In this document: positions 1 to 64,000 of the stretch, one piece after another
How the letters are laid out: the number at the start of each line of letters is the position of its first letter
Position numbering within the stretch: position 1 is the stretch's first letter
Assembly: GCA_963758535.1 (NCBI GenBank)
Contig: CAVWVT010000015.1
Location: 202,472 to 266,471 of the forward strand
Direction of reading: 5' to 3'
Source of the DNA: an uncultured Verrucomicrobiae bacterium
GTDB lineage: Bacteria > Verrucomicrobiota > Verrucomicrobiia > Chthoniobacterales > UBA10450
DNA: 64,000 nucleotides
Notes under the pieces: generated by a model
Databases searched by the model: none
What the model saw: the letters and a program-made list of their open reading frames with translations, nothing else
What the model was told of the DNA's origin: nothing
Translations under genes and position numbers: made by a program

Positions 1-483
1 ATTGAAACGATCAACAAGCTCATGCGTGTGCAAAAGCAGCTCGTCCAGGAATATGGACGGGAGCCGAGTCCCGAAGAAGTGGCGGAGGAAATTTTGCTGC
101 CGGTTGATCGCGTGCGTGCGGTGCTGAAGATGGCGCAGCAGCCGATTTCGCTGCAATCGCCAGTGGGCGAGAGCGAGGAAACGAATTTCGGCGACTTCAT
201 CGAAGACAAAGGCGCGGAAAATCCGAGCGACATGACCGCCATCGTGTTGCTAAAGGAGAAAATTAAGGATGTGCTCGAGACGTTAACCGAGCGCGAGCGC
301 CAGGTTCTCGAACAACGTTTTGGTTTGGTGGATGGCTACAGTCGCACCCTTGAAGAAGTCGGCCGGCAATTTCGGGTGACGCGCGAACGAATTCGCCAGA
401 TCGAGGCGAAGGCATTGCGCAAGATGCGGCATCCGACGCGTATCCGGCAGCTCGAAGGTTTCCTCGAAGCGGCCGAAACGTAA
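1..483 (+). CDS. rpoD: RNA polymerase sigma-70 factor RpoD, C-terminal part (5' end outside window)
   Basis: Frame 1 is open from nt 1 ([14 protein letters not shown]...). It shows sigma-70 region 3/4 sequence (...[44 protein letters not shown]) and stops at 481-483. Confidence 0.9.
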
Positions 484-489
484 CAAAAA

Positions 490-526
490 TTGAGCTGACC
501 GTTTGTCGCGATCAGCTCAAAATTTT
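490..526. terminator. Possible bidirectional hairpin terminator between convergent genes
   Basis: 9-bp inverted repeat TTGAGCTGA (490-498) / TCAGCTCAA (512-520) followed by AATTTTG. The loop is long (13 nt) and the T tract weak. Confidence 0.4.
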
Positions 527-544
527 GTCGGTGAATTGCCGTTG

Positions 545-826
545 TTATCGGACCCGTCGGCCACGGTAAACTCTATGACCACGGTGCCAGTAATAAGGCC
601 GGCTGTGGTAACGATACCCAACTGAATAATACGGCCGATAATATCCGTAGGGATAATATCCCGGATATCCATAGGCGTAATAACCCGGGTAGCCACATCC
701 GCCGTAATAACCGAAGCCGATCGGGAAACCGATTCCAACCGAAACGAAGGTTCGCGCCTCCGTGCGCGGCGTTGCTGCGAAAGCAAATCCAACTGCCACC
801 AAAACGATCAGAAGAAGTTTTTTCAT
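545..826 (-). CDS. Small secreted Gly/Tyr/Pro-rich basic protein (93 aa), unknown function
   Basis: Signal peptide MKKLLLIVLVAVGFAFAA, then low-complexity GYYGGCGYPGYYAYGYPGYYPYGYYRPYY and a basic tail. AAGGAA lies upstream of the ATG. Confidence 0.55.
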   Translation of the reverse strand: MKKLLLIVLVAVGFAFAATPRTEARTFVSVGIGFPIGFGYYGGCGYPGYYAYGYPGYYPYGYYRPYYSVGYRYHSRPYYWHRGHRVYRGRRVR

Positions 827-893: not shown

Positions 894-1907
894 TTATTCA
901 GGCTCATCTTTCGCTCGATTAGCCGGATAACCGCTGATGCAAACGTCACTGCCGATCCGTTCGTAGCGCATTTTTTCCAAACGGAGAGCATCCCCGGTCG
1001 AGTCTGCGCCTTTGCCGGGAAACGCAACCGCAGGCCCGCCCGTGAGAAGTGGCGCTAAATAGATTTGCACCTTGTCGATCAAGCGCGCATCGAGCGCCTG
1101 CGAGAGGATTTGCCCACCGCCTTCAAGCAATACGCTGGTGATTTCTTTTTCTCCCAGCTCTTTCAGCACCGATTCCAATGTTTGATTGCGGAATATCAGC
1201 GTGCGATCGACGTGCCGATCGGTAAACAATTTCGCGTCGCGCGGCAGTTTTCCGGAACGAGTAAGAACTACGCGCCACGGTTGCCGCGTTGTCTTCGCGC
1301 CTCGAATTGTCAGGCGTGGATCGTCACGCCGCAATGTTTCGGCACCGATCAGGATTGCATCGACTTGCGCGCGAAGTGCATGTGCGTGCCGCCGCGATGC
1401 TGGACTGGTTAGCCATCTCGACTCGTTAGGCGGTCGCGTCAAACGTCCGTCGAGACTCATCCCGCACTTTGCGATGACAAAGGGCTCCCGCGTTTGAATC
1501 CACTTATTGAAACTCTCGTTAATCGCTGTGCATTCCTCGCGTAGCACACCGTCGCGCACCTGCACTCCCGCTTCCTGCAATTCCGTAATCCCCCGTCCCG
1601 CGTGTCGCGGATTTGGATCGGTGGCGCCGATTACAACTTGTTTAATTCCTGCAGCAACGATGGCTTCCGTGCATGGCGGCGTCCGACCGGCTGTCGAACA
1701 GGGCTCCAAAGTAACGTAAAGTTCAGCGTCCTTCGGCACCGCTCCATGAAGTTGTGCAAGGCATTCAATCTCCGCGTGGGGAAGACCAGCGCCCCGATGA
1801 TGACCGCGCGACACTATCTTTCCGTTCGCAACGAGAAGCGCTCCGACGGCTGGGTTGGGGCTGGTTTGTCCCAGGCCTTTCCTTGCTTCGGCCAACGCCG
1901 CGTGCAT
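894..1907 (-). CDS. ribD: Bifunctional riboflavin biosynthesis deaminase/reductase RibD
   Basis: Deaminase zinc motifs HAEIECL and PCSTAGRTPPC are followed by a RibD C-terminal reductase domain. 337 aa. Confidence 0.9.
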   Translation of the reverse strand: MHAALAEARKGLGQTSPNPAVGALLVANGKIVSRGHHRGAGLPHAEIECLAQLHGAVPKDAELYVTLEPCSTAGRTPPCTEAIVAAGIKQVVIGATDPNPRHAGRGITELQEAGVQVRDGVLREECTAINESFNKWIQTREPFVIAKCGMSLDGRLTRPPNESRWLTSPASRRHAHALRAQVDAILIGAETLRRDDPRLTIRGAKTTRQPWRVVLTRSGKLPRDAKLFTDRHVDRTLIFRNQTLESVLKELGEKEITSVLLEGGGQILSQALDARLIDKVQIYLAPLLTGGPAVAFPGKGADSTGDALRLEKMRYERIGSDVCISGYPANRAKDEPE

Positions 1908-3096: not shown

Positions 3097-3212
3097 GCGC
3101 GCGCAAGACGACATCTTCGATAACCTTTTTTGAGTTGTAGCGGAAAAAAGCGAATTGCCAAAAGCCGTTCGTTAGGATTGAATCGCGCAGTCAACCCTGA
3201 GGAACAATCCAA

Positions 3213-4871
3213 ATGAAAATCGCGAAAATCACGTCCCTTCTGTTGGTGCTAGCCGCGTCTACGACACTCGCCCGCAGCCCGTTCGATGTTCCTTTTAAAC
3301 TTTCCGATTTGCCGCGACCGACGACCACTGCCGCGCCATCCGGTGCGCCGGCGGTTTATCCTTTCGAGTTTCGAACGATCGATGGCTCCGGCAATAATCC
3401 CATTGATCCACTTCGCGGCGCCGCAGGCACGCCGCTCCTTCGTCTGATGGCTCCCGATTACGCCGACGGCGTGGGTGCGCCGGCGGGCGTTGGTCAGAAA
3501 AGCGCGCGAGAGATCAGCAACCTGGTCGTCGCGCAAGAACATGACGTCCCGAGTCCCGCGCATACGTCCGATTATCTCTGGCAGTGGGGACAGTTCATTG
3601 ATCACGACATGGACCTGACACCGGCCGCGAGCCCCCTCGAGCTTTTCAATATTCCAGTGCCAATTGGCGATCCGCAGTTCGACCCGCTCGGCACCGGTAC
3701 GCAAACCATCGAGCTCGACCGTTCGCTCTATCAGATGATCGATGGCGTTCGCCAGCAGATGAATGCCGACACGGCGTTCATCGACGCGTCGCAGGTTTAC
3801 GGCTCGGATGTAGCCCGCGCCATGGAACTGCGCACGCTGGATGGCACCGGCCGTTTGAAAACAAGTGCGGGCAATTTGCTGCCCTACAACGTGAACGGTT
3901 TCCCCAACGCACCTTCCACCGATCCGAGCTACTTCCTCGCCGGAGATGTGCGGGCTAACGAACAAGTAGGCCTGACTGCGATTCAGACTCTTTTCGTGCG
4001 CGAACATAATTACTGGGCCGGCGTGATCGCGCAGAGCCTGCGGGCCCCCGATGAAGACACCATCTATCATCGTGCCCGTGCCATGGTCGGAGCCGAGATG
4101 CAGATCGTCACCTATCGGGAATTTCTTCCGCTCTTGCTGGGTCCGAATGCGCTTCCGCCTTACACTGGCTATCAGCCGACGGTTAATCCTGGAATCTCCA
4201 ACGTTTTCTCCACCGCAGCGTATCGCGTGGGGCACACCATGCTTTCACCAACGCTCCGCCGGCTTGATGCGAATTTCGTATCGATCGGCGACCTCAGTCT
4301 CGCGTCATCATTTTTCAATCCAATCGAGATAAGCGTTCCCGGCATTGAGCCGTATCTTCGCGGTCTGGCGAAGCAAGTCGATCAGGAGGTGGATTGCTAC
4401 CTCGTGGATGGCGTGCGCAATTTCCTCTTCGGTCCTCCCGGCGCGGGTGGATTCGATCTCGCCTCTTTGAATATTCAACGTGGGCGAGATCATGGTCTGC
4501 CTCGTTATAACGTCGCGCGTCAAGGTTTTGGTCTCGCGCCGAAGGCGACCTTTGCAGACGTAACATCCGATCTCGAACTGCAAGCCAAGCTCGCCGCTGC
4601 TTATGCTTCGCCGGACGACATGGATGTCTGGGTCGGCGGACTGGCCGAGGATCATGTGAACGGCGGCCTTGTCGGCGAATTTTTCTTTACCGTTTTGCGC
4701 GATCAATTTACCCGCCTGCGCGATGGCGATCGCTTTTGGTATCAGACGTATCTTCCGCCGGGTCTCGTGCAGAAGCTGGAGAGCCAAACTTTGAGTGATA
4801 TTGTGAAGCGCAACACACCGATCGGTCGCGGGCTGCGACCCGACGTCTTCACCTATACCGAGACTCGGTAG
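3213..4871 (+). CDS. Secreted animal-type haem peroxidase family protein
   Basis: Signal peptide, then [38 protein letters not shown] and [21 protein letters not shown], typical of the An_peroxidase family. 552 aa, intact. Confidence 0.85.
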
Positions 4872-6956: not shown

Positions 6957-7935
6957 ACGCTCATCGTCGAAGCCGAAAATCGTTCGTCAACCCGAACGGT
7001 TGTTTGCCGGCCAACATTTCCATTTGGAGATTTTCTCTGGCTCCATCACTGTGACCTGCAATGACCTCGGCCCAAATTCGGCAATCCTTTCTCGATTTCT
7101 TCCGCGAGAAACAGCACACCATCGTGCCCTCGTCATCGCTCCTGCCGGACGCGCCGAATTTGCTCTTCACCAATGCCGGCATGAACCAATTCGTGCCGAT
7201 CTTCCTCGGTCAGCAAAAACCTTCGTGGAATCCGCCGCGCGTGGCCGACACGCAGAAATGCATTCGCGCCGGTGGCAAACACAACGATCTCGAAGACGTC
7301 GGCCTCGACACCTATCACCACACATTTTTCGAAATGCTCGGCAACTGGAGCTTCGGCGATTATTTCAAAAAAGAAGCGATCGAATGGGCGTGGGAATTGG
7401 TCGTTAGGCGCTGGGGTCTTCCGCCGCAGCGCCTTTACGCCACCGTTTACAAACCCGGGCCTGACGAGCCGAGCGAGTTTGATCAGGAAGCGCACGATCA
7501 CTGGGCACGCTTGTTTCGCGAAGCCGATCTCGACCCCGCGATCCACATCGTTAACGGAAACAAGAAGGATAATTTCTGGATGATGGGCGACACCGGCCCA
7601 TGCGGTCCCTGTTCCGAACTGCACGTCGATCTTACGCCGGATGGCGACACGCGCGGTGCGCTCGTGAATCAGGACGATCCGCGCTGCATCGAGATTTGGA
7701 ATCTGGTTTTCATTCAGTTCAACGCCGACGCCGATGGCAATTTTACGCCGCTGCCGCAGCGACATGTCGATACCGGGATGGGATTTCGAGCGCGCGGTTG
7801 CGATTATTCAGGGAACAAAAAACTTCACTGATTTTTCCGGCACCATCTCAAACTACGAGACCGACGTTTTCCGCCCAATCTTCGATGAGATCGAAAAACT
7901 CAGCGGGAAGAAATACGGATCGACATTGCCAAAGT

Positions 7936-8038
7936 GGAGGACAGGCTTCCAGCCTGTCTCGGCCGGCAGGCTTCCAGCCTGTCGAAAAAGGACGGGCAAG
8001 ATGCCCATCTGCCGGGACAGGCAGGATGTCTAACCTCC
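7936..8038. repeat. Cluster of four short GC-rich hairpins (unit GACAGGCT-TCC-AGCCTGTC) inserted inside alaS
   Basis: Bounded by GGAGG...CCTCC. Perfect 8-bp stem with 3-nt loop at 7940-7958, a second at 7965-7983, and two degenerate copies. Same unit type as 27904-28016. Confidence 0.75.
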
Positions 8039-8377
8039 GAACAGGAGAAAATCGACATCGCATTCCGTGTGATTGCGGATCACATCCGCACGCTAACGTT
8101 TGCAATCGCCGACGGAATCATTCCGTCGAACGAAGGCCGCGGTTATGTCTTGCGCCGGATTCTTCGTCGCGCCGTGCGCTACGGGCGGACGCTTGGATTT
8201 CACGAACCATTTTTCTTCAAACTGGTGGATGTGGTTGCGCTCACGCTTGGTGAAGTCTTTCCCGAAGTCCGGAATAATCAGTCCCGCGTTAAAGAGACGA
8301 TCGCGCGCGAAGAAGACTCTTTCAATAGAACGCTGGACAAAGGCATTGATTTGTTCGAACGCGAGGTCGGGCGCATT

Positions 8378-8985
8378 CTGGGGAGCGCACGCGACTCGCG
8401 TGCCGTTTCCGGCGACTCGCCGGAAACCTCTTCGCTCGCAGCGCAAATAAAGTACGCCAAGCGCCGACTTCCACATTTCGAACGTCCATGGGGCAAATAC
8501 GCCGTCGCCTTTAGCACACACGGGCGACAGCAACTCTCCGAAGAGGAGCGTGATATTGTCCTCGAGTGCATTCTTTTTCCGGCGAAACAAAATCATTTCG
8601 AGCTCTATGTCGCCTGCGTAATGCCGGATCATGTGCATCTGCTTCTTGAGCCGCAAGTCCGCGAACAGGATGCCAAAGGCGATCCGGTTTTTTATTCGCT
8701 GACCGAAATATTACAGAATATCAAATCGGTTTCCGCGCATCGGATCAACAAGAGTCGGAGCGCGAGTGGGCCCGTCTGGGAAAAAGAATCGTTTGACCGT
8801 TTGATTCGATCGGAGAGCGATCTGCAGGAAAAATATCTCTATATCGCGGGCAATCCGTGGGCGGCGGGAGTCGCGGCTCCCGGGAGTGATTATCGATGGT
8901 TGTGGACGTGGGATGTGGAGATTGGGATGAAGAAGGCGTCCGGCGAGTCGCCGGACGCGGCACGCGAGTCGCGTGCGCTCCCCAG
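8378..8985 (+). mobile_element. REPtron-like unit: RAYT (REP-associated Y1 transposase) flanked by inverted REP hairpin doublets, embedded in alaS
   Basis: Terminal inverted repeats at 8378-8427 and 8938-8985 (CTGGGGAGC + GCACGCG-nnn-CGCGTGC + GTTTCCGGCG-nnn-CGCCGGAAAC). The outer ~27 nt are identical. An HUH/Y1 transposase coding region lies between them. Confidence 0.8.
8453..8905 (+). CDS. REP-associated tyrosine transposase (IS200-like Y1/HUH) domain, no start or stop of its own, in frame with alaS
   Basis: [25 protein letters not shown]..., HUH motif [11 protein letters not shown], catalytic-Tyr helix [15 protein letters not shown]. Part of the continuous ORF 7934..9181. Confidence 0.75.
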
Positions 8986-10561
8986 CATTTCTGGCGCGTT
9001 CGCATTTCGGCTTTATGACGAGCAGGGATTTCCGCTCGACCTGACTCAGTTGATGGCACGAGAGCGTGGCTTGAGTGTTGATGTCGCTGGTTTTGAGAAA
9101 TTGATGGACGAACAGCGTTCCCGCGCGCGCGCTGCTCAAAAGAAAGCGGCACTTACTGTTCAGCACACTGGTGTACTTTGAGACAAAATTCATCGGATAT
9201 GACTGCCTGAAAGCAGATGATGCACGTCTATGTAACGTTGTTGAGAAGATTCGGAGGAATTGGGAGTGGTGATATATGGGCAATCGTTGATGTATCGCCG
9301 TTTTACGCGGAGATGGGCGGTCAGGTCGGAGATACGGGTGAATTGAGATTTGTTGAAGATGGCAAGATTTCTGGAAATCGTTAATACGCTGAAGCAGGGC
9401 GGTACGTTCTATTTAAAGCTTGCCGATACGGAGGGTTTCGACTGGTCTCCTGGTCAGCGCCAGTTACGAACTGAGCGTTGATGCGCCGCGTCGCCGCGCG
9501 ATCGAGCGACACCATACCGTCACACATATTTTGCACTGGGCGCTGCACGAACTCGTTAGTCGCGAGGCGGTGCAGAAGGGAAGCTACGTGGGACCGGAGA
9601 AGTTGACGTTCGATTTTTCGAGCGCGGCGCTGACGAAGAAGCAGGTGCGTGATCTCGAGAAAATGGTGAACGAGAAGGTCGCGGAGAACGCGGCGGTTTC
9701 GTGGACCGAAGTTCCCTACGTAGAAGCGAAGAAGCGCTCCGATATTCAGCAATTCTTTGGTGACAAGTATGGCGACGTCGTGCGCGTCGTGCAGATCGGC
9801 GGCGGCCCTAACGAGTTGAATGGATACTCCATGGAACTCTGCGGCGGCACGCATGTGCGCGCGACGGGAGAGATTGGTGCGTTCCGCATCGTGCGCGAAG
9901 AAGCGATCGCGGCGGGTATTCGAAGAATTGAAGCGGTTGCGGGTGGCGCGGCGAAAGAATGGGCGATGAACGAGGCGAAGCGGCAGGAAGAAAAGTTCCA
10001 GACTCTCGGGCGGAAGAAATCTGGCATCGCGGCGCTGCCGGCGTTCACAGATGACGCCGAAGCGAACTGTGATGCTGCAACAGATCGATGCGCGGGCGGC
10101 GCACTTGGAAAAATTGGAAGCGGAAGTTCGCGATTGGGAAAAGCAGAATGCGAAAGCAAACGAAGCGAATCTGCGAAGTCGCGCAGCGGCGATCGCGAAA
10201 GAGCTCGCGGAATCGCATGCTGGAAAGAAGTCGTTAGTCGCGCAGGTGGCGGATGGCGATGGAAAATTGCTGCAGGCGGTTGCGGATTCGCTCAAAACGA
10301 AATTCAACGGCCCGATCTTTCTGGCGGGTGCGACGGATGGAACCGTTGCCTTAATTGCATCCGTTCCGAATGAGCTCGTTTCGAAAATTCCCGCAAACAA
10401 ATTAATTCAGGAAGTCGCGCCGATTGTCGGTGGCAAAGGCGGTGGCCGGCCAGAAAACGCGCGGGGTGCCGGTACGGATGTCGCGAAAATCGAAGAAGCT
10501 CTCGCCAGCGCGCGCGCCTTTTTTGAATAGAAAAAACCGTGAAGAGAACAGCGTCGGGTAG

Positions 10562-11641: not shown

Positions 11642-11679
11642 CTCGGCAGGTCGTTAGGTCATTCCGATAGTTCCTTCCT

Positions 11680-13176: not shown

Positions 13177-13219
13177 GCCAGGTTGTCTCCTAACGAATAG
13201 AATTAGAACCGCTAATGCT

Positions 13220-14570: not shown

Positions 14571-14707
14571 GCGCCCCTAGCAGCTTAAGTCAGGCCAATG
14601 CGGCGCGGTCCCGCGCAGAGCACGAACTAAACATTGACCGCGCTCGGGATGGGATGTCACGATGCCGCCCGCCAAAGCAGGTATTTAGCCTAACGAATCA
14701 AAAAAAC

Positions 14708-48389: not shown

Positions 48390-48468
48390 GCGTCGATAAT
48401 GACCAGCGCGTTAGCATAATGCAAGGGTGTTTAATAAGGTGGTGTTTTGTCTTCTTACTATTTCGTCA

Positions 48469-48762: not shown

Positions 48763-48769
48763 GTTGCAA

Positions 48770-48847: not shown

Positions 48848-48899
48848 CAACAGAAAAGTCGCTGGCGCGTATTCAACGACTGCTTTAGAAGAGCTAACG

Positions 48900-49869: not shown

Positions 49870-49958
49870 TCAGTTGTCATTCTGAGCGCGGCGTGGAACC
49901 TCACCAGTTATGATTTCGCCAGGCCACTCGCAGAGAGTATGAGACCTAACGAGATTAG

Positions 49959-51041: not shown

Positions 51042-51593
51042 ATGATGGAAAGCACAGCAGCGATTCTCCTGCGCAAACGGAAGCTGAGCGACACGAGCCT
51101 GATTGTATCGTGGTGCACAGCGTCGTTAGGCTGCATTCAGACGGTGGCCAAAGGCGCGCGTCGCGCCCGGAGCCCGTTTGCTGGAAAACTTGATCTGTTT
51201 TTCGAAACGGAGATTCAGATTGCGCGCAGCCGGAGGTCGAACCTGCATACGCTAACGGAGGTAGTGTTGCGCAATCCGTTTGGAGGAATTCGCAAAACGC
51301 ATTTGCGCGCGCAGACTGCCGCCTACTTTGTGGAGTTGATCGAGATTTGCACAGAGTCCGATCACCACGAGCCGGAACTTTTCACGTTATTGCAACGCGC
51401 CTTTGGCTATCTCGATAAACACGATCCCACTTCGAAAGTGGTCGCGCATTTTGAGACCGAGCTCGCGCGAATCGCGGGCGTTCACGATGCGAAAATGCTG
51501 AAGAACGAAGCGGCATTCGCGCTTGGAAATTTGTTCGGCCGTTTGCCTCTCTCGCGCACACCGCTTTTAAGAGCGATAAATTCCGCCGGATGA
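51042..51593 (+). CDS. recO: DNA repair protein RecO (short form)
   Basis: AILLRKRKLSDTSLIVSWCTASLGCIQTVAKGARRARSPFAGKLDLFFE. 183 aa. Confidence 0.78.
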   Translation: MMESTAAILLRKRKLSDTSLIVSWCTASLGCIQTVAKGARRARSPFAGKLDLFFETEIQIARSRRSNLHTLTEVVLRNPFGGIRKTHLRAQTAAYFVELIEICTESDHHEPELFTLLQRAFGYLDKHDPTSKVVAHFETELARIAGVHDAKMLKNEAAFALGNLFGRLPLSRTPLLRAINSAG

Positions 51594-53644: not shown

Positions 53645-53680
53645 GTGCAACGCGAACGTTGATTGTGATTCGTTAGGCAA

Positions 53681-54667
53681 ATGATTGTGCAAGTTCTCCG
53701 GGCGGGACCACTGGCGAGTGTACAGGATCTCGGGCGTTTTGGTCATCGCGCTATCGGCGTCGGTAGCGGCGGAGCGCTCGATCCGTTTGCCGCGCGCGTT
53801 GCAAATCTTCTGGCCGGTAATGAAGAAACGGCCGCGCTGATCGAAATTACGCTCGGTAATTTCCGAATTCGTTTTACGGATGAGCGTGTCATCGCATGGT
53901 GCGGTGGCGCATTCCAGACGCAGGTCGGTCAGGAAAAGGCTTCAGCTGGTCACGCTTTTCTCGTTCATGCAGGCGACGAGCTTGTTGCCAATGCACCTCA
54001 AATTGGGTGTCGGATGTGGCTCGCAATCTCAGGTGGCATTGCTGTTCCATCAATCCTCGGAAGTCGATCCACTGACCTGCGCGCTGGATTCGGCGGTCTC
54101 GATGGCCGCTCGTTACGCGACGGCGATGACTTGCCGCTTGGTGCAATAAATTCGATGAATGACGCGCGCGCGGAGACATTGCGCGAAAAACCGTCATCAA
54201 ATTGGAGCGCGCAGCGCGAATGGGCGATTCCCGCGCTGCGCTACCCAAAGCTACGGATTGTGCGCGGCGTTGATTGGAACCGCTTTGACATTTCTACACA
54301 TCAAAGCCTAACGAGTGAAAAATTTGCCGTTACGCAAGAAGCCGATCGAATGGGAGTTCGTTTGGATGGGCCGGAATTGGAACGAAAGGATTCGGGCGAT
54401 CTGTTGTCGGAAGCAGTCGCACCTGGGACGATGCAAGTTCCTCCAAACGGCCAACCGATTCTTTTGCTCGGAGATTGCCAAACGATTGGTGGTTATCCGA
54501 AGATCGCGCATGTGATCACAGTTGATCTGCCGATCGCGGCGCAACTTTCCACCGGAGATAAAGTGCAGTTTCGAGAAACTTCCCTGGCTGAAGCGCATTC
54601 GCTTTTGCTGCAACGAGAGGAAGACCTCGATCGATTTCGAATCGGCCTCGATCTAAGAACCTCATGA
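53681..54667 (+). CDS. pxpC: 5-oxoprolinase subunit C (KipA/allophanate hydrolase subunit 2 family)
   Basis: VLRAGPLASVQDLGRFGHRAIGVGSGGALD, GTMQVPPNGQPILLLGDCQTIGGYPKIA. Confidence 0.88.
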   Translation: MIVQVLRAGPLASVQDLGRFGHRAIGVGSGGALDPFAARVANLLAGNEETAALIEITLGNFRIRFTDERVIAWCGGAFQTQVGQEKASAGHAFLVHAGDELVANAPQIGCRMWLAISGGIAVPSILGSRSTDLRAGFGGLDGRSLRDGDDLPLGAINSMNDARAETLREKPSSNWSAQREWAIPALRYPKLRIVRGVDWNRFDISTHQSLTSEKFAVTQEADRMGVRLDGPELERKDSGDLLSEAVAPGTMQVPPNGQPILLLGDCQTIGGYPKIAHVITVDLPIAAQLSTGDKVQFRETSLAEAHSLLLQREEDLDRFRIGLDLRTS

Positions 54668-55419
54668 GTCTCTCCGTCGATCTCAATGCGGACCTTGGTG
54701 AAGGCGCCGGTCACGATGAAGATATTCTCGAGTTCGTCAGCTCCGCTAACATCGCCTGCGGATTTCACGCTGGAGATCCGACATCGATTCTCGATTCAAT
54801 TCGCGCGGCGCACGAACTCGAGGTCGCGGTCGGTGCGCATCCGAGTTTTCCCGATCGCGAAAACTTCGGACGCCAGGAAATCGAACTGCCGCCGGAGGAG
54901 ATTTATTCAATCCTGCTTTATCAGCTCGGCGCGTTTCGGGCGCTCGCGTCTGCCGTGGGAGCGGAGGTGAATCACGTCAAGGCGCATGGCGCTCTTTACA
55001 ATATGGCGGCGCGCGATCGCTCGCTGGCAGATGTGATTGCCAACGCCGTTTTCGCGTTCGATCCGAAGCTGATCCTGTTCGTTCCGCCTGGCGGCGTGTT
55101 TGAACGCGCGGCGCAAGAACGCGGATTGCAAATCGCGCGCGAAGTTTTCGCGGATCGCAATTACATGCCGGATGGCACACTGGTGTCGCGGTCGTCGCCG
55201 GATGCTTTTGTGCGCGATCCGCTCGAAGCGGCGGAGCGAGTTATTCGGATGTTACGCGAACAAAAAGTGCGCGCGATCAACGGCGTCGATGTTCCAGTCG
55301 CTGCTGAAACAATTTGTGTGCATGGCGACAATCCAGAAGCGGTGGAGTTTGTGCAAAAATTGCGGGAGCGGCTTGCACGCGAACAGGTCATGATTGCAGC
55401 GCCGGTGCGACAACGATGA
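54664..55419 (+). CDS. pxpA: 5-oxoprolinase subunit A (LamB/YcsF family)
   Basis: DLNADLGEG, ANIACGFHAGDP, VKAHGALYN, ICVHGDNP. Start overlaps the pxpC stop. Confidence 0.9.
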   Translation: MSLSVDLNADLGEGAGHDEDILEFVSSANIACGFHAGDPTSILDSIRAAHELEVAVGAHPSFPDRENFGRQEIELPPEEIYSILLYQLGAFRALASAVGAEVNHVKAHGALYNMAARDRSLADVIANAVFAFDPKLILFVPPGGVFERAAQERGLQIAREVFADRNYMPDGTLVSRSSPDAFVRDPLEAAERVIRMLREQKVRAINGVDVPVAAETICVHGDNPEAVEFVQKLRERLAREQVMIAAPVRQR

Positions 55420-55446
55420 CATTCAAGTCGTTAGGCGATTCCCGGT

Positions 55447-55550
55447 TTGGGGAGCGCAGGCTGCCAGCCTGTGCTTTTCGGCAGCCTGCCGAAAAGATTT
55501 GTCGCCGGCAAGCTGCCGACGACTGCAGGCAAGCTGCCTGCGCTCCCCAG
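55447..55550. repeat. REP/BIME-like palindromic element, family 1
   Basis: TTGGGGAGCGCAGGCTGCCAGCCTGTG CTTTTCGGCAgccTGCCGAAAAG ... GTCGCCGGCAagcTGCCGACGAC TGCAGGCAAGCTGCCTGCGCTCCCCAG. Confidence 0.85.
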
Positions 55551-55566
55551 ACAAGAAAAGGCGACC

Positions 55567-57085
55567 ATGAGCGATTACATCGCTAATCCCGAAGAAGCGC
55601 GGTTGGTTCGGGGCCTCGGTTTGCTCGATGCCACAATGATCGTCGTCGGCTCGATGATCGGCTCCGGGATTTTCATCGTATCGGCAGAATCTTCACGTTT
55701 GATCGGTGCGCCGGGTTGGTTGCTGATGACCTGGGTCATTGCCGGCGTACTCACGATCACAGGCGCGCTTTGCTGCGCGGAACTTGCTGCGATGATGCCG
55801 CGCGCGGGCGGGCCGTACATTTTTCTGCGCGAGGCGTACGGACCGTCCACCGGATTTCTTTATGGTTGGGCGGTGTTTCTCGTTATCCAAACGGGAACGA
55901 TCGCCGCGGTTGCCGTCGCGTTTGCAAAATTCCTTGGCGTGCTCGCGCCGGCGATCGCGACGGAAAATTATCTGATCGCGCCCATTCAGGTCGGCGGTGG
56001 TTATGCGATCAGCCTTTCCACCGAACAACTCGTCGCCGTGCTGCTCATCTTTTTATTAACGTGGAGCAACACGCGCGGGCTTGAACTCGGCAAACTGGTC
56101 CAGAATGTTTTTACGTTCGCAAAAACGGCAGCATTGCTGGCGTTGATCGTGATTGGTCTCTCGTTAGGCTGGAAAGTCGGGTTGCGCGGCGCTTTCCGCA
56201 GATTGGTGGAATCCATCCGCGAACGGTTGGAATCCGCAGGTGGCGCAGCCTGGCCTTACTTTCGTCGGTGCGCTCGCGATTGCAGTTTTGTTAGGCAAAG
56301 CGATGACTGGTCCGCTCTTTGCGCAAACGGCCTGGAACAACGTCACGTTTACCGGCAGCGAGGTGCGCGATCCGGGAAGAAATTTGCCGCGCTCGTTGCT
56401 CATCGGTTGCGCGATTGTCGTGACGCTCTACGTGCTGGCCAACATCGCTTATCTCGCGACGCTTTCCTTTCCCGAGATTCAACATGCGCCACAAAATCGG
56501 GTCGCTGTCGCGGCGATGCGCGCGGTGCTCGGTGCTCCCGGCACGATCGCGATGGCTATCGCGATCATGATTTCCACTTTCGGATGCAACAACGGTCTAA
56601 TTCTCGCCGGCGCCCGCGTCTATTATGCGATGGCACGTGACGCACTTTTTTTCGGCGGCGCAGCGAAGACGAACAAACATCACGCGCCTGCGATCGCGCT
56701 GGCGACTCAAGGCTTGTGGGCTGCATTTCTCACCTTGCCGCGGACTGTGATTACGAATGCAACGAATGGCTCGGTGAGTTACGGCAATGTCTACACGCAG
56801 TTGCTCGAGTACATCGTCTCCGCCGATCTGATTTTTTATGTGCTAATGGTCGGCGCTGTCATTGTTCTCCGGAAAAAGATGCCCGCAGCCGAACGACCAT
56901 ATCGCACGTGGGGTTATCCCGTGGTGCCGCTCATTTATATTTTGATCGCCAGTTTGCTCATCATCGATCTCGCTTGGCTTTCGCCAACAACCTCGGGCAT
57001 TGGTGTGGCGATCGTGCTGACGGGAATTCCCGTTTATCTGATGTGGCGCAAAAGATCGGGTAGGGCGGATGTCTCGTCCGCCTAA
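55567..57085 (+). pseudogene. APC superfamily amino acid permease (LAT/SteT-like), one frame change (~56173, A run)
   Basis: MSDYIANPEEARLVRGLGLLDATMIVVGSMIGSGIF... joins ...FAQTAWNNVTFTGSEVRDPGRNLPRS... (ORFs 55447..56640 and 56240..57085). Confidence 0.85.
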
Positions 57086-57136
57086 CGGAGTGTCTCGCTC
57101 CGTTTCTTATTTGTAGAATCGGAACGAGACGTTCCG
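57086..57136. terminator. Pair of short hairpins between the convergent permease and OPT genes (possible bidirectional terminators)
   Basis: CGGAGtgtctcgCTCCG followed by TTTCTTATTT, and CGGAACGagaCGTTCCG (57120-57136). The two hairpins are also mutually inverted. Confidence 0.4.
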
Positions 57137-57159: not shown

Positions 57160-59537
57160 CTACCCGGATGATTTGCGTTTCGACGCGAGAAGCGCGTCGC
57201 GCCCGACGAGATAAAGCAGGACGCAAAGCGCAGCGAACGGAATCAGCGCGAGTACATCGGACGACGGGCCTTCGAAAAATGGATTGTGCGCCGTGCACCA
57301 TTTTTCGATGGCGTCGAAGGTGTCTTTCAACGGAATGTTCAGGAAGGCGAAAACGACTCCGGCCAGTGTCCCACCTGCAATGTAACCGGAGGCCAAGAGC
57401 ACTCCGTTGCTCTTGTCGCCTTCTGCGACGAGCTGATCTTCGGTGAAGTTCGCGCCGGCGTGTTTGCGACGCGTGTATTTGTCGACGAGCCCGCGAATCA
57501 CACCGCCGACCCAAACTGGTGCGGAAGTCGAGATCGGAAGATAAACGCCGACGGCAAAAGCGAGCGAAGGTATTCCGGAAAGCTCGAGCACGATCGAGAT
57601 GAAAACGCCGAGCAGCACGAGTCCCCACGGCAAATGGCCGCCGAGAATTCCCTTGATGATGTAGGACATCAACGTCGCTTTCGGCGCGGTGAACTTCTGC
57701 ACGCTCGAGCCGTCGGGGCGCTTGTCGTAAATGCCGTTGATGCCGGGATCGACGAGATAGACCGGGTGAACCCTGGTCGTTCACGAGGTAACGCCCGGCC
57801 GGTCCGTTATCAGTTGAGGTTTTGTGAAACACAAAATACTCGGTGGCGTCGGCGCCTGCCTGCGCACCAGCGAGGCGTTCACGCTTCGGCTGGCCGCTGG
57901 AATCTTTTTCGAAGTCGGCCGGATTTGCGTGATAAGCGGAGGCAAAGGTGAAGTCTTTGTTGCCCGCCACTGGAATGTAAACCGTGCCGGACTCGTTCAG
58001 CTTCATCAGAATCGGGCCCGATCACCAGGCACGACGCGAGTGTGCCGATGAGAATCGCGATTTGCTGATACTTCGGCGTCGAGCCGATCAGGAATCCCGT
58101 CTTGAGATCCTGCGAGGTCGTGCCGCCATTCGAGGATGCGATGCAAACGATACCGCCGATCGAAAGTGCCGTGACAAAATAGGGCGGCGCTGTCCAACCG
58201 ACGATAAGGAAGACGAGGCATGTTAAGAGCAGCGTCGCCACCGTGATGCCGGAAGTTGGACACGAAGAAGAACCCACTTCGCCGGTGAGACGGGACGAAA
58301 CGGTGGTAAAAAGAAATCCGATCCCGACGATGAGGAGCGCGCCTAACAAGTTGAAACGCAGGTTGAGCTGCGGCGCGAGCATGATGAGCACGAGCAGCAA
58401 AATGATTCCACCGATCACCCATTTCATCGAGAGATCCTGATCGGTGCGCGCGGCCGTGGCTGTTTCCGTGCGCGCGGCACGCAGGTCGGCGAGTCCGCCT
58501 TTTAATCCATGCCAGATCAAAGGCAGCGAACGAATGAGACTGATGATGCCGCCGGCCGCGACGGCGCCGGCACCAATGTAAAGAATGTAGCCGTGCTGGA
58601 TTTGATCGACGCTCATCTCCGCGATCGTGTGACCGGTTTCCGGCGCCACCGGTCCCGCGACTAACGAACCGAAATATTTGATCGCAGGAATCAGAACGAG
58701 ATACGACAAAACGCCGCCGCCCATCATCATCCCGGCGATGCGCGGTCCGATGATGTAACCGACGCCGAGCAATGCCGGATTGTTCTCGAGCGAGATCGAG
58801 GCACCCTGGAAAGGTTTCGCAAAGATCTTCTCGGGGATTTCCTTCATCGCTTTCAGCATTTCGAGCGCGGCGTAATAAAGGAAACCGATGCCAAAACCGC
58901 TGATGATCACCTTGCCGCCGCTGACAGCTTCATCCGCGGCGATCGTGCTGCGCTCATCGGAACGCGCAGCCTCGCGCGATTCCGCCGACGCCCCGGCTTT
59001 CAAGACTTCCGCGCAGGCCGTGCCTTCCGGATACTTCAGATATCCGTGTTGATGAACGATGAGCGCGCGCCGGGTCGGGATCATCATCAGAATGCCCAGC
59101 AACCCGCCGAGAATCGCGACCAACATCACGCGCACGATCTCGAGATCGAACCCGAGGATCATGATCGCGGGCATCGTCACGCCGAGACCGAAAGCAATCG
59201 ATTCGCCCGCTGAGCCGGCAGTCTGGACGATGTTGTTCTCGAGAATGGTCGAATCGCGCAGGCCGAACTTCGAGAGCACCCGGAAGGTGGTGATTGCAAG
59301 AACCGCGACCGGAATCGACGCACTGACCGTGACGCCGACCTTGAGGACGAGATAAAGCGACGAGGCGCCGAAAACGATCCCGAGTAACGTGCCAATGATG
59401 ATGGGAAGCGGCGTAAACTCGCGCAGCTTTATGTTAGCCGGAATGAACGGGCGAAAGTTGGCGAGAATCGGATTCTCAGGTCTTGCGCCCACGATATCCG
59501 GCATTTCGTTAGGCGGATTTCGCGGGTCGATTTTCAA
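57160..59537 (-). pseudogene. OPT family oligopeptide transporter (copy 1), two frame changes (~58010, ~57780)
   Basis: Pieces 57879..59537, 57107..58006 (part) and 57160..57702. EFTPLPIIIGTLLGIVFGASSLYLVLKVG, ...GYIAGGTLAGVVFAF... Confidence 0.85.
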
Positions 59538-59567
59538 GACGGAACTTTCGCAGTGCTGCGCCCTGGC

Positions 59568-61613
59568 CTAACGAGTCGCGCCTGCTTGCCCGGTCCGCGT
59601 CCCCATTCCCAGGATCCAGCGATAAAGCACGAAACCGATGACCACGAAAGCAATCCCCCCGATGATAATTGCCGGCATTTCAAAGGATGGGCCCACCAAG
59701 GCGAGCGGGTTCTGGACGCCACTGAAACCTACGACGCCGGCATAGATCACGGCCAGGAGACTCTCCCCAACGATCAGGCCCGAGGCGAGCAGCACGCCCA
59801 GTTGCTTGATCGCCTCGGCATTCTCGCGGCGCTCTGCGTAGCGGTCGAACCATGCGCCCACCAGCGCTCCCACGACAACCATCAGCGTGGTCGAAGTGGG
59901 CAGGTAGATGCCGAGCCCGACCGCCAACGGCGGCAGGCGCGGACCTTTCTTCGCGAGCCCGAGAATTTCGTCGAGGAAGATAATGGCGACACCGATCACG
60001 GCGCCGAGCCCGATCATGTTCCAAGGCACATCGCCGGTAATGACGCCCTTGGCCAGCGCCGAGATCAGGCCCGCCTGGGGTGCTGGAAGGGCCCGCGCGG
60101 GATCAGCGCCCGGGGCTCCAAGGAACCCGTAAGTGTTCTGCAGCAACTGCATCACCGGCGGGATTACGACCGCGCCCGCCAGCACGCCGATGACCAGCGC
60201 CCACTGTTGCAGCGCCGGCGTGGCATCGACCAGTTGGCCGGTTTTGAGATCCTGGAGGTTGTTGTTTGCGATCGACGCCACCGCGAACACGATCGCGGTG
60301 ATGAACAACGCAAATCCGACCAGCGCTTTGTCCGCGCCCGGTGGCAGGAATGGCTTCACCGCCAGGACCAGCAACAGTGCCGCCACCACCACGACCAAAA
60401 TGCCGATCCCGGAAAGCGGGCTGTTGCTGGAGCCGATCAGGCCGGCCATGTAGCCGCACACGGCCGAGACAAGAAAACTCATCAGGACAACAAACGCCAC
60501 GCCGCCGATCACCAGCGTTAGCGACGGCAGCGCCCAACCCGTTTTGGATCGCGAAAGTCCACAGCAACCAGCCGATCGGGATAAAGCAGAGCAGCGAGAC
60601 CAGTCCGACGATGCCAATCGGTATGTCGTGCTCGGTGCGCGGCAGTTGATCGAGCGTGCCGGCCTTCCGTGCGCGCGAAGCGCGGAAGGATCCGGCGAGG
60701 CCGTCGGCCAGCGGCTTCACCAGCTTCGCCAGTGTCCAGATTGCGGCCACACCGATGGCACCCGCGCCCATGAAGCGCACATAGTGGGTCCATCCGGCGC
60801 GAGCCGCGTCGGCGGCCGGGCCCGCCGTCCAGTGGAGATGCGTGAAGTAGGGCACGGCCCACGCCCAACCGATCAGCGCACCGACCAGCATCGCGACGCC
60901 CACCCACAAGCCGACCAAATGCCCGATGGCCAGCAACGCGAACGACAACCCAAAATCGAACCCCGTCGCTCCGCTCCTCGCGCCACCCCGACGCGAAAGT
61001 AACTGGTCACGGCTTCGGCAAACACCTTGGTCTGCACCATCACATAAAACACCGCCGACACGATGGCACCCCACACGACGGCCTTAAGGCCAGCGCCGCT
61101 CGTTTCCACCCTTTCCGCCTCCGTGCCGCGCGCGTCACCCGATCCGACCTTTAGCACTTCCGCGCAGGCCACACCTTCCGGGTAGGGAAGATCCGAATCC
61201 GTGACCATCGCCCGCCGCAACGGGATCGTGTACATCACGCCGAGGATGCCGCCGGTGGCGCAGATCGCGGCCGATGTCCAGAATGGAAACCCCGACCAGT
61301 AGCCCACGATGACGAGACCGGGGAGCACGAAAATGATCGCCGAGAGCGTGCCGGCCGCGGAAGCGATCGTCTGCACGATGTTGTTTTCCTGAATGGTGGC
61401 GTCGCGCATCGCCTTCAAGATCGCCATCGAAATGACCGCCGCCGGGATGGAGGTCGAAAAGGTGAGGCCAGCTTTCAGTCCGAAGTAAACATTCGCTGCC
61501 GTGAAAACGATCGTGATGACGATGCCGATGATGATGCCGCGAAGGGTGAGTTCGGGACGCCGTTTTTCATCGATCATGTCGTTAGGCGAATTGGACGTGG
61601 TGATTGTTGCCAT
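59568..61613 (-). pseudogene. OPT family oligopeptide transporter (copy 2, tandem paralogue), two frame changes (~60990, ~60540)
   Basis: Pieces 60873..61703 (ATG at 61613), 60103..61074 and 59568..60617. ELTLRGIIIGIVITIVFTAANVYFGLKAGLTFSTSIPAAV... Confidence 0.85.
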
Positions 61614-61754
61614 GGGATTTTTTGAGCTGGAGCGCCTTCCTGATTGAGTGTTGTCCCGCTGTTCGCGCTTGGAGAGAACAACAGTTTTATCGCCAAAGGT
61701 CAAGAGCGCGCAATCGAGTGAGAAGTTTTGAAATAAGTGCAGTTCAAAGGGCAG

Positions 61755-61857
61755 GTCATCCTGAGCGAAGCGAAGGACCTCGCGAGTAAGGACAGATCTG
61801 AATTATGGGCGAACGTTTCGAACATTCGTAAGGTCCCTCGCTTTCGCTCGGGATGAC
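61755..61857. repeat. Family-2 inverted-repeat element
   Basis: GTCATCCTGAGCGAAGCGAAGGACCTCGCGAG ... AAGGTCCCTCGCTTTCGCTCGGGATGAC. Confidence 0.85.
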
Positions 61858-61982
61858 CAGCGGAAGTGACTCGTTAGGGCGTCGGCGTTGCGGATTGTTT
61901 TTTCCAACGCTGATCGAAGCGCCTTGATTCTTTAGTCGTCGCCTTGCAGGTGAGAATGCTTCGCACAGCGAAGCGGTTACAT

Positions 61983-64000
61983 TCACTCTTCGTGCAGCGC
62001 GACTATCGGATCGACCTTCGTCGCGCGTCGTGCGGGAAGATAATTGGCGAGCAACGCGACGCAGCCGAGCACGAGCACAACAAGCAGGAACGTTTCTGGG
62101 TCGCCGGTGCCGACACCGAAAAGTAATCCAGCAAGCAATCTCGTTAGTCCAAAAGAAGCAACCAACCCGACGGCGACACCAATCGCCGCAAGCTTGAGTC
62201 CATTTCCGATCACGAGGCGAAATACATCTGGCCGTTGCGCACCGAGTGCGAGGCGAATGCCGATCTCGCGCGTCCTTTGCGTCACACGCAACGCCATCAC
62301 GCCGAACAATCCGATTGCGGCAAGCGTTAAGGCGAGACCAGCAAAAGTGCCTACAAGTGTCATCGTCAGGCGACGCGAAGCCATGTCATTCGAAATTGCG
62401 CGCCGCATTGTGGTGATGTCGGAGACCGGCTGATCGGGATCAACAGCGAGCACTTCACGCTTCACCGTTTCGCCGTAGGAAAGCGGATCGCCGGACGCGA
62501 CACGCACCAGCAATATCTGTTCGGTCTGCGAAAACTGCTCGGTGGAATAATACATCTGCGGCATGTTGAGCTTTTCAAACGCATCCGCGGGATCCTCTGT
62601 GCGGACGCGGCCGACTACGCCGATCACCGTCAGCGGCGGCGGATTTTTTTCGAGCGTCTGGTTGTTATCGATGTGTTTGCCGATCGGATCCTCGCCGGGG
62701 AAGAATCGTTTCGCGAACGAATCGTCGATAATCACCGACCAATTCTTCCCCGGTCGATCTTCCGATCCAAAGACGCGGCCGCGCAATAGTGGGATGCCCA
62801 TTGTCTTGAAATAGTCGGAAGAAACGACGCTCACCTGTGCGGAAGGTTCTTTCCCGGGGGGATCGGCCGGCTTACCCGTGATGTGAAAGCTTGAATCCCA
62901 TTCGTCGCCATCGAACGGAATATTTTCCGCGGAGGTTGCAGTCAGAACGCCCGGCAATGCGCGCACGCGCTCGAGAACGAGACGGAAAAATTGCGTGACT
63001 TTCGCATCGTCGGCATAGCGCGCTTTTGGCAGCGCAATCGACATTTCGAGCAATTGGTCCGGATTAAATCCGTAAGCGAGACGATTTACTTCACGAAAAC
63101 TTTTCAGAAGCAGCCCTGCGCCAGTCAGCAACACCAGCGCGAGCGCAACCTGCGCAACCACCAATCCCGCGCGCAGACGCTGACGATCGGCGCCATCGCT
63201 GCTGCCGCGGCCGCCTTCGCGCAAAGCCAACGCCGGTGTCGCTGCGCCGGCGATACGCCACGCTGGCCAGACGCCAGCCATGAGACCGGCCAGAGTCGCG
63301 ACACCAGCGGTAAAAAGAAGCGCCGGCATGTTGATGTGAATGTTGTGAAAACGCAGCTCGTTCGCCGGACTTAAGGCGACGATGATATCGAGTCCCCACA
63401 CCGAAAGGAGCACGCCGGCAGCGGCGCCGACGAAAGCGAGGATCACGCTTTCAGTTACAAGCTGCATGGTGAGCCGAAATCGGCTCGCGCCTAACGCGGC
63501 GCGCACACCGAGTTCGCGTTGTCGCCCCGTTCCACGAGCGAGCAAAAGCCCGGCGACATTTGCGCACGCGATCAGGAGCACGCAGGCGACAGCGCCGAAG
63601 AGCACGTAAAGATTGCTGCGATAATTGCCCACGGCGCTTTCGAGAAGCGTATCCATCGTCACGCGGCGGCCGGTGTTGTTATCGGGATATTGTTTCTCCA
63701 AATTTCGCGCGATGGTGTCGAAGTCCGCGCGCGCTTGTTCCAAGGTCACGCCATTTTTCAAACGTCCAAGAACTCGAAAGCCCGGATGATTTCCGCGTTC
63801 GAGAATATTCGGATCGGCGCGCATGTCGGCGAGCGGCGTAAAGATTTGTGGTTCACGCGACAGCTGCATTTGCGGAGGCAGCACGCCGATGATTTCCGTC
63901 GGCACACCGTTGAGCGTGACGCGCCGACCGAGCACCGTCGGGCTCGCGCCAAAACGCTGGTGCCATAAACGGTCGCCGATCATCCCCACGTGCGGCGCGC
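61983..64000 (-). CDS. ADOP/MacB-like duplicated FtsX-domain ABC permease (5' end outside window)
   Basis: Two FtsX-type TM modules with MacB-like periplasmic domains (…LGASRFRLTMQLVTESVILAF…, …REIGIRLALGAQRPDVFRLVIGNGL…). Frame still open at nt 64000. Confidence 0.85.
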   Translation of the reverse strand, partial: APHVGMIGDRLWHQRFGASPTVLGRRVTLNGVPTEIIGVLPPQMQLSREPQIFTPLADMRADPNILERGNHPGFRVLGRLKNGVTLEQARADFDTIARNLEKQYPDNNTGRRVTMDTLLESAVGNYRSNLYVLFGAVACVLLIACANVAGLLLARGTGRQRELGVRAALGASRFRLTMQLVTESVILAFVGAAAGVLLSVWGLDIIVALSPANELRFHNIHINMPALLFTAGVATLAGLMAGVWPAWRIAGAATPALALREGGRGSSDGADRQRLRAGLVVAQVALALVLLTGAGLLLKSFREVNRLAYGFNPDQLLEMSIALPKARYADDAKVTQFFRLVLERVRALPGVLTATSAENIPFDGDEWDSSFHITGKPADPPGKEPSAQVSVVSSDYFKTMGIPLLRGRVFGSEDRPGKNWSVIIDDSFAKRFFPGEDPIGKHIDNNQTLEKNPPPLTVIGVVGRVRTEDPADAFEKLNMPQMYYSTEQFSQTEQILLVRVASGDPLSYGETVKREVLAVDPDQPVSDITTMRRAISNDMASRRLTMTLVGTFAGLALTLAAIGLFGVMALRVTQRTREIGIRLALGAQRPDVFRLVIGNGLKLAAIGVAVGLVASFGLTRLLAGLLFGVGTGDPETFLLVVLVLGCVALLANYLPARRATKVDPIVALHEE

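Follow-up and report, generated by a model that had tools for sequence, protein, structure and literature searches.

Why does one short DNA word recur, on both strands and in unrelated genes, along a stretch of bacterial chromosome? This question is raised by a 64-kb stretch of DNA (hereafter the window; 55% G+C) from a soil metagenome-assembled genome (MAG) of Chthoniobacterales (Verrucomicrobiota), an order that is among the most abundant soil bacterial lineages and almost wholly uncultured. The word is the 9-mer TCGTTAGGC, together with its 8-nt form TCGTTAGG and the 7-mer core CGTTAGG/CCTAACG. We find that TCGTTAGGC is specific to certain lineages and highly iterated, and that what is maintained is the DNA sequence itself, in either orientation.

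A preliminary description of the window had counted, by eye, 35 copies of the 7-mer core, 31 that extend to TCGTTAGG and 18 that extend to TCGTTAGGC, and had judged the 8-mer over-represented against a crude expectation of about two. These counts and all listed coordinates were reproduced. We then compared them with three null models: a dinucleotide shuffle (n=100), an order-3 Markov model and a synonymous-codon shuffle within each open reading frame (ORF). An order-5 Markov model is an invalid null, as the word dominates its own 6-mer counts. The 31 copies of TCGTTAGG in 64 kb, which are split 16:15 between the plus and minus strands and so bear out the reported strand symmetry, compare with 1.01±0.97 after dinucleotide shuffling (maximum of 4 in 100 shuffles) and with 1.17 under the order-3 Markov model, and the 17 ORF-internal copies with 1.06±1.0 after codon shuffling. 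With about one copy expected under each null, the excess is real and the ratio of observed to expected is ∼16–30 rather than near 1; among the 8-mers of the window, TCGTTAGG ranks first in over-representation. An information profile of the 35 window sites showed signal only at T(−1) (31/35), at the seven core bases and at C(+8) (22/35), and sequence logos of 98 sites from the window clade and 375 sites from a denser clade had uninformative flanks. As the flanks lack conservation, the word does not belong to a longer dispersed repeat, in line with the preliminary description. The unit is an isolated, non-palindromic 9-mer, T-CGTTAGG-C (TCGTTAGGC).

Relatives were collected with the TonB-dependent receptor of the window (23469–25301) as query, which gave 80 loci of ∼21 kb each, numbered with the prefix L. 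Nearly all retrieved loci are labelled as Chthoniobacterales, 'Spartobacteria', Verrucomicrobiota or Candidatus Udaeobacter soil MAGs, and the top receptor match has 89% amino-acid identity; L001, a contig with ∼96% nucleotide identity to the window, was reached through an identical EF-Tu. Counts pooled over orthologous loci are non-independent, and weight was placed on per-locus counts and on the window. TCGTTAGG was the top 8-mer in 24 of 81 loci, and its density followed the clades. There were 3–6 copies per 10 kb in the window clade (the window, L001–L004, L007 and L028), 7–22 in a clade with 59–62% G+C (48 copies in L019 and 44 in L037, ∼2% of the sequence), 0.5–3 in a third clade and mostly 0–1 (at most 2.3) in a Ca. 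Udaeobacter-like clade and a few others. Expressed per kb, density ranges from 0.5 in the window up to 2.2 in L019. Over the pooled word-positive loci, TCGTTAGGC was observed 381 times with 5.5 expected.

Copies of the word are also preferentially conserved. In three relatives that align to the window at 79–84% nucleotide identity, window copies were retained at orthologous sites in 8/8 cases (L003; 0.27 for random 8-mers), 9/11 cases (L004; 0.17) and 6/8 cases (L002; 0.32), and identity at word positions was 0.94–1.00 compared with 0.75–0.86 in the flanks. Where the word is missing from a relative, its orthologous site shows substitutions (TCGTTAGA, TCGTCAGG and TCCGTCGG are examples) and in no case an indel, which indicates that copies arise by point mutation and are then kept. 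At one site in a riboswitch loop (window 23036), TCGTTAGG is present in most word-rich lineages; L031 is the sole low-density locus that has it there, and the others carry unrelated loop sequences. The look into related genomes that the preliminary description had suggested thus finds the word there, restricted by lineage and conserved at orthologous sites.

One-mismatch variants in the pooled positive loci were enriched at positions 1, 2, 8 and 9 and as T5→C, and not at positions 3 and 4. The one-mismatch variant TCGTCAGG occurs at ∼4 per 10 kb beside TCGTTAGG in L009 and L022 (also in L058 and L078) and may reflect a relaxed specificity or an incipient dialect. At some orthologous sites TCGTCAGG replaces TCGTTAGG, as in L002 at window 32479 and in the riboswitch loop of L070. 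A different word, AAGATCGACA, was found at 2–14 per 10 kb in a Udaeobacter-like subclade (L014, L020, L023, L027, L031, L033 and L044), on both strands, in three reading frames and with unconserved flanks, and is absent from the TCGTTAGG-dense clade (0 copies). Its pooled counts (79 with 2.9 expected; 69 with 8.2 expected after codon shuffling) are inflated by shared orthologous sites, and its signal is clear in this subclade only.

The word leaves its mark on encoded proteins. Coding copies in the window are read as xCG-TTA-GGx (LG, 7 copies), CCT-AAC-GAx (PN[DE], 6–7), CTA-ACG (LT, 7) and GTT-AGG (VR, 1), where the range for PN[DE] stems from the copy at 9807, whose frame in a frameshifted part of alaS is uncertain. 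With this one reservation, the frame independence reported earlier is confirmed, as are the rare TTA and CTA leucine codons that the word imposes. Coding copies in the dense clade divide 118:134 between sense and antisense, and all four stop-free frames are used. There, 83% of Ser-Leu-Gly (SLG) tripeptides are encoded by TCG-TTA-GGx, with 1.3% expected from codon usage, and 66% of Pro-Asn-Asp/Glu tripeptides by CCT-AAC-GAx; SLG, PN[DE] and LT are word-encoded in 44–83% of cases. SLG tripeptides number 123 in the dense clade and 10 in the word-free clade. The word alters protein sequences, and not synonymous sites alone, which is also reported for the uptake sequences of Neisseriaceae and Pasteurellaceae. 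A codon or peptide effect as the source of the excess was rejected, as four frames and both strands are used and the codon-shuffle nulls fail.

The genes in which the copies lie are ordinary chromosomal ones: the window contains recA, recO, rmuC, alaS, ribD, two hsp20 genes, pxpABC and several transporter genes, as well as tuf-secE-nusG-rplK with tRNA-Thr and tRNA-Trp, and a cobalamin riboswitch upstream of the TonB receptor gene. As many window genes are split by frameshifts, naive ORF calls give false gene ends, and gene models were corrected by Pfam. With the corrected models, 22 of the 35 copies are in coding sequence and 13 are non-coding or at gene boundaries, the latter being the number originally described. 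The copies, with strand in brackets, are as follows.

1423–1430 (+): TCGTTAGGC, antisense inside ribD (894–1907, −)
3169–3176 (+): TCGTTAGG, intergenic, 36 nt upstream of a haem peroxidase gene (3213–4871)
7401–7408 (+): TCGTTAGGC, sense in the alaS N-terminal part, frame GTT-AGG
9807–9814 (−): TCGTTAGG, frameshifted middle of alaS; conserved in L004
11308–11315 (−): TCGTTAGG, antisense in ORF 10562–11641, read CTA-ACG
11651–11658 (+): TCGTTAGG, 9 nt past the TGA stop of ORF 10562–11641
12532–12539 (−): TCGTTAGG, antisense in the MBOAT gene (11915–12847)
12639–12645 (+): 7-mer only (CCGTTAGGC), sense in the MBOAT gene, xCG-TTA-GGx
13189–13196 (−): TCGTTAGG, 23 nt past the stop of the DUF3667 gene (13220–14218, −)
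13954–13961 (+): TCGTTAGGC, antisense in the DUF3667 gene; conserved in L002 and L004
14689–14696 (−): TCGTTAGGC, just upstream of or in the N-terminus of an amino-acid permease (14552/14708–16318); conserved in L002 and L004
19824–19831 (−): TCGTTAGGC, antisense in a GH26 fragment; conserved in L003, one mismatch in L004
20046–20053 (−): TCGTTAGG, antisense in GH26; conserved in L003, L004, L007 and L028 though the flanks have diverged
20727–20734 (−): TCGTTAGGC, 24 nt past the OsmC stop, in the loop of a strong hairpin that separates OsmC from the convergent deoxyhypusine synthase gene
22017–22024 (−): TCGTTAGGC, sense in an epimerase gene (21857–22987, −), xCG-TTA-GGx; conserved in L002–L004
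23036–23043 (+): TCGTTAGGC, variable hairpin loop of the cobalamin riboswitch (22884–23090)
24084–24091 (+): TCGTTAGGC, sense in the TonB-dependent receptor gene (23469–25301); conserved in L002–L004
24174–24181 (−): TCGTTAGG, antisense in the TonB-dependent receptor gene, CCT-AAC-GAx; conserved in L003, L004, L007 and L028
28184–28190 (−): 7-mer only (ACGTTAGGC), sense in a DUF885 gene (28018–29853, −)
32479–32486 (+): TCGTTAGGC, antisense in a polyprenyl synthetase gene; conserved in L001, L003 and L004, TCGTCAGG in L002
35075–35082 (−): TCGTTAGG, its TAA (35077–35079) being the stop of an ECF sigma factor gene (34588–35079)
37688–37695 (−): TCGTTAGG, antisense in a TPR protein gene (37004–37930); conserved in L001–L003
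41976–41983 (+): TCGTTAGG, antisense in a DUF885 gene (41009–42742, −)
49945–49952 (−): TCGTTAGG, 6 nt past the TAG stop of an aldo/keto reductase gene (49959–50882, −)
51123–51130 (+): TCGTTAGGC, sense in recO (51042–51593), xCG-TTA-GGx
53670–53677 (+): TCGTTAGGC, between pxpB and pxpC, 25 nt past the stop and 3 nt ahead of the next start
54307–54314 (−): TCGTTAGGC, antisense in pxpC (53681–54667)
55428–55435 (+): TCGTTAGGC, 8 nt past the stop of pxpA (54664–55419), with a repetitive extragenic palindromic (REP)-like element right after
56161–56168 (+): TCGTTAGGC, sense in a frameshifted amino-acid permease gene (55447–57085)
57081–57087 (−): 7-mer only (CCGTTAGGC), its TAA (57083–57085) being the amino-acid permease stop; AACG lies within a terminator-like stem
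59506–59513 (+): TCGTTAGGC, antisense near the 5′ end of an OPT transporter gene (57879–59537, −)
59567–59574 (−): TCGTTAGGC, its TAG being the stop of a second OPT gene (59568–60617, −)
61579–61586 (+): TCGTTAGGC, antisense in an N-terminal OPT fragment (60873–61703, −)
61871–61878 (+): TCGTTAGG, intergenic, 104 nt past the stop of a MacB/FtsX gene
63490–63496 (−): 7-mer only (GCGTTAGGC), sense in a MacB/FtsX gene (61983–63989, −)

Nine of these copies lie at gene 3′ ends, where ∼1 is expected (3.8 compared with 0.33 per kb). Three of the nine supply the stop codon themselves (35075, TAA; 57081, TAA; 59567, TAG) and the remaining six lie 6–25 nt past the stop, so that the enrichment at gene ends holds with slightly different numbers from those first given (eight copies 0–25 nt past a stop). 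The word contains TAG, its opposite strand TAA; in either orientation the third frame reads as a stop codon, which is part of the reason for the preference for gene ends. Densities in the dense clade were 1.0 per kb in coding sequence, ∼6 for copies overlapping stop codons, 2.2 in the 30 nt past the stop and 1.6 in other intergenic DNA; the word is thus ∼2-fold denser outside coding sequence, and ∼6-fold where it overlaps the stop codon. As a general rule, copies build up at any place that tolerates them. In L019, the densest genome, intergenic DNA at 7428–7465 and 8498–8512 contains head-to-tail tandem cores with a 7-nt period (TCGTTAGGCGTTAGGCGTTAGGCG), including a triplet.

What could maintain such a word? 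Known short, highly iterated, strand-symmetric words have all been tied to transformation: the DNA uptake sequence (DUS) of Neisseriaceae, the uptake signal sequence (USS) of Pasteurellaceae and, recently, the highly iterated palindrome 1 (HIP1) of cyanobacteria. The DUS (core GCCGTCTGAA, 12-mer ATGCCGTCTGAA; receptor, the minor pilin ComP) is present in hundreds to thousands of copies per genome. It resembles TCGTTAGGC in being short (9–12 nt), non-palindromic and present at ∼1 per kb on both strands, in genic and intergenic copies at permissive sites that are kept by related species, and in its lineage-specific distribution. It differs in that its sequence is unrelated and belongs to another phylum, and coding copies make up 69–78% here but ∼35% in N. 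meningitidis. Inverted-repeat pairs or a terminator location, which account for about half of DUS/USS copies (DUES) and are typical of DUS, also set it apart, as terminator-forming inverted pairs are rare here. The USS (9-mer core AAGTGCGGT or ACAAGCGGT) shares the 9-nt core, the use of all tolerated frames, the inflation of encoded tripeptides, a mostly genic location (65% in H. influenzae) and the existence of two subclades with different words. Whereas AT-rich flanks of the USS aid uptake, the flanks here are uninformative, and the other clade has an unrelated word, not a variant that differs at 3 nt. The distortion of tripeptides is also larger here: the frequency of USS-encoded tripeptides is reported as doubled, whereas SLG is raised ∼10-fold. 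Word density (0.5–2.2 per kb) matches the range reported for DUS and USS (0.3–2 copies per kb). HIP1 (GCGATCGC), an 8–9-mer that reaches ∼1 per 0.4 kb, occurs in all frames, is conserved and was long unexplained; it is palindromic, methylated by known methyltransferases and phylum-wide, whereas TCGTTAGGC is non-palindromic and confined to part of one order.

Since the properties that can be read from sequence match those of DUS and USS, and HIP1 is itself linked to transformation, we favour, at somewhat less than even confidence and by analogy, the reading that TCGTTAGGC is a DNA-uptake or self-recognition word that spreads by molecular drive. A DNA receptor on the cell surface, probably part of a type IV filament, would bind double-stranded TCGTTAGGC preferentially, and uptake and recombination would be more frequent for fragments with the word than for others. 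New copies created by point mutation would then be over-transmitted and existing ones preserved, and copies would pile up where the protein code permits, that is, in the four stop-free frames, at stop codons, in gene 3′ flanks and in the loops of structured RNAs. We infer from the analogy an uptake bias, a receptor and competence of these uncultured bacteria. With slightly more reserve, we suggest that a sequence-specific uptake or self-recognition system may have evolved independently in Chthoniobacterales, with TCGTTAGGC as its word, and that other clades may have switched to another, such as AAGATCGACA. The signature is uptake-sequence-like, undescribed in this phylum, unrelated in sequence to known words and lacking their terminator-pair habit. 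The comparison with uptake sequences drawn in the preliminary description therefore stands for conservation, clade restriction, density, proteome distortion and permissive sites; it does not extend to terminator pairs, and it is an analogy only. The statement that no such element had been described for this kind of genome agrees with our full-text literature searches, which turned up no account of the word itself, none of uptake sequences from Verrucomicrobia and none of competence in either Chthoniobacterales or Udaeobacter.

Several observations weigh against an uptake word. Natural transformation in Chthoniobacterales has no report in the literature. Folding of the 13 non-coding window copies revealed no common structure and no consistent hairpin context, two copies apart, one of which lies in a hairpin loop and the other in a terminator stem, and only 2 of 13 pairs within 40 nt were inverted, most close pairs being direct; DUS-like terminators arranged as inverted repeats are thus missing. 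Enrichment at gene ends, ∼9–11-fold in the window, is much weaker in relatives (∼2–6-fold). AAGATCGACA is unrelated in sequence to TCGTTAGGC and not a dialect that differs by 1–2 nt. Spacing of the window copies is compatible with random placement (coefficient of variation 1.03 compared with 0.97±0.17) and not even, so that the word-free stretches noted previously (41984–49944 and 14697–19823) exist but carry no significance. Word-free stretches in dense loci (L066, L077 and L070) contain ordinary genes only by Pfam, with no mobile-element genes, a result that favours neither side. Finally, a four-gene cluster resembling type IV minor pilins lies between GH26 and OsmC in L003 (2905–6895) and L082 (8576–12497), with products of ∼178, 310, 619 and 211 aa, the second with an N-terminal methylation motif (N_methyl) and the third PilX-like. 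It is absent from the matching window site (∼20125–20290), where a REP-like pair lies, and was not found in L002 or L004. Its homologues are widespread in related MAGs, and L083 has two adjacent copies; as they occur in the word-free L083 and L084, the cluster does not track the word and offers no evidence for a receptor.

The rival that survives best, though we consider it unlikely, holds that the word is the site of an abundant, sequence-specific DNA-binding protein that acts chromosome-wide in some process other than uptake (in the nucleoid, or through a self-marker in repair, recombination or defence), and that selection keeps the density of sites high in either orientation. Preferential conservation at orthologous sites fits such selection as well as it fits drive, and a defined 9-bp specificity with an intolerant core, an orientation independent of transcription and replication, and a clade-restricted distribution would all be in keeping with a binding site. 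However, no known nucleoid or defence system requires a non-palindromic 9-mer every 0.5–2 kb while rewriting proteins. Density also ranges from ∼0.5–1 to 22 per 10 kb among relatives that share gene order, which variable drive explains more easily, and the L019 tandem copies 7 nt apart suggest accumulation rather than a function that depends on spacing.

Slightly less probable is that the word is a functionless by-product of biased mutation or repair by a sequence-specific enzyme, for instance through a methyltransferase with a very-short-patch (VSP)-like repair nuclease or as a methylated word of the HIP1 kind, with near-cognate sequences being turned into the cognate word. Copies do arise by point substitution, one-off variants at core positions 3–4 are somewhat depleted (8 compared with ∼20 expected), and cyanobacterial HIP1 provides a precedent for a methylated iterated word. 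Yet known repair biases (Dcm/Vsr) yield small excesses and not 30–70-fold ones, the word is costly in rare codons and amino-acid changes, and HIP1 is itself now tied to transformation. Methyltransferase specificities, moreover, seldom reach nine defined non-palindromic bases.

A polar sequence, either a Chi-like recombination hotspot or a chromosome-orienting sequence of the FtsK-orienting polar sequence (KOPS) or SpoIIIE recognition sequence (SRS) type, is very improbable. Chi (GCTGGTGG) and KOPS (GGGNAGGG) are likewise over-represented 8-mers in core DNA, the word is an over-represented 8–9-mer in core genes, and recA, recO and rmuC lie in the window. Co-orientation with replication is ∼75% for Chi and >85% for KOPS, whereas the word is split 16:15 in a window whose cumulative GC skew rises steadily throughout, and 200:248 relative to the G-rich strand in 29 pooled loci. 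As orientation is without replication skew, sequences of the Chi and KOPS type are essentially excluded, which upholds the earlier judgement from the strand split that the word stands closer to DUS and USS. In addition, Chi and KOPS leave codons unaltered and their fold-excess is much lower, and the density and fold-excess of the word are far above those of Chi.

Weakest of all, and likewise essentially excluded, is the notion that the copies are fragments of a dispersed repeat family (REP, a miniature inverted-repeat transposable element (MITE) or an insertion-sequence end), a compositional or codon effect, or an assembly or sequencing artefact: the window does contain a separate REP-like family and its assembly appears error-prone with many frameshifts, but flanks are unconserved over 473 sites, most copies are in frame in conserved genes with no indels, codon-shuffle and Markov nulls fail 16–30-fold, the REP-like family is unassociated with the word, and the MAGs rich in the word were produced by many unconnected projects with different assemblers, so a technical artefact does not account for it. 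REP elements, bacterial interspersed mosaic elements (BIMEs) and MITEs resemble the word in copy number; they are 20–150 nt long, intergenic, palindromic and inserted as blocks, as is the TCTGGGGAGCGCAGGCTGCCAGCCTGC family of the window, whereas TCGTTAGGC is not.

This REP/MITE-like family has the consensus TCTGGGGAGCGCAGGCTGCCAGCCTGC.GT.TTCGGC with an internal hairpin. Its copies lie at window positions 8380, 20138, 32258 and 55449 on the plus strand and 8975, 20227, 23471, 32372 and 55540 on the minus strand, mostly in intergenic DNA (8380, 8975 and 23471 are inside ORFs), and form three inverted pairs ∼90–115 nt apart; 8380 and 8975 are ∼600 nt apart. The second most over-represented word of the window, CTGGGGAGCGCAG, belongs to this family and is separate from TCGTTAGGC. 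The two copies at 8380 (+) and 8975 (−) flank an IS200/RAYT-like Y1_Tnp domain (∼8498–8765), which is contained in one ORF (7934–9181) with the middle of alaS; the unit resembles a REP-associated transposase that was either inserted into this essential gene or placed there by mis-assembly. Other Chthoniobacterales clades have intergenic REP-like families of their own (..TTCTGTAGCCGC..CCCTGTGG and GTCATCCCGAGCCGCGCAGA), found in L012, L005, L017, L073, L011, L045, L053 and others, and these mimic short iterated words in 8-mer statistics. Thus CTGTAGCC and GTCATCCC were rejected as 'dialects' in other clades, being longer intergenic REP-like repeats. Two more candidates for short iterated words were rejected: TATTCCAC (L053) belongs to a repeated protein domain, and TACTCCAC (L021) is a tandem repeat with an 8-nt unit at the end of the locus (21692–21758), with five perfect head-to-tail copies and degenerate neighbours.

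Several window genes are split into two or three overlapping ORFs: alaS (7061–10530), an S9 peptidase gene (16645–17654), GH26 (19074–20124), the deoxyhypusine synthase gene (three pieces, 20790–21875), the amino-acid permease gene (55447–57085) and an OPT transporter gene (59568–61703). These are either indel errors of long-read assembly or genuine pseudogenes. The window also encodes a full-length homologue of animal haem peroxidases (3213–4871; Pfam An_peroxidase, E=6e−147), adjoining the two hsp20 genes and recA.

According to a 2025 survey, uptake sequences are known from two families only, both proteobacterial and animal-associated. If TCGTTAGGC is indeed an uptake word, it would represent the first uptake-sequence system outside Proteobacteria, the proposed role of HIP1 apart, and its presence in a dominant uncultured soil lineage would suggest that sequence-biased transformation is commoner than thought. 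Were it not an uptake signal, a costly, protein-rewriting 9-mer that several species preserve would indicate some genome-wide system as yet unknown. As an uptake word, it would also serve as a self-DNA tag in soil metagenomes, for binning, host assignment and the detection of recent transfer, and TCGTTAGGC placed on donor DNA could offer a handle for genetic manipulation. It would further give direct evidence, at the genome level, that these bacteria are capable of natural transformation and that their exchange of DNA is preferentially with members of their own lineage.

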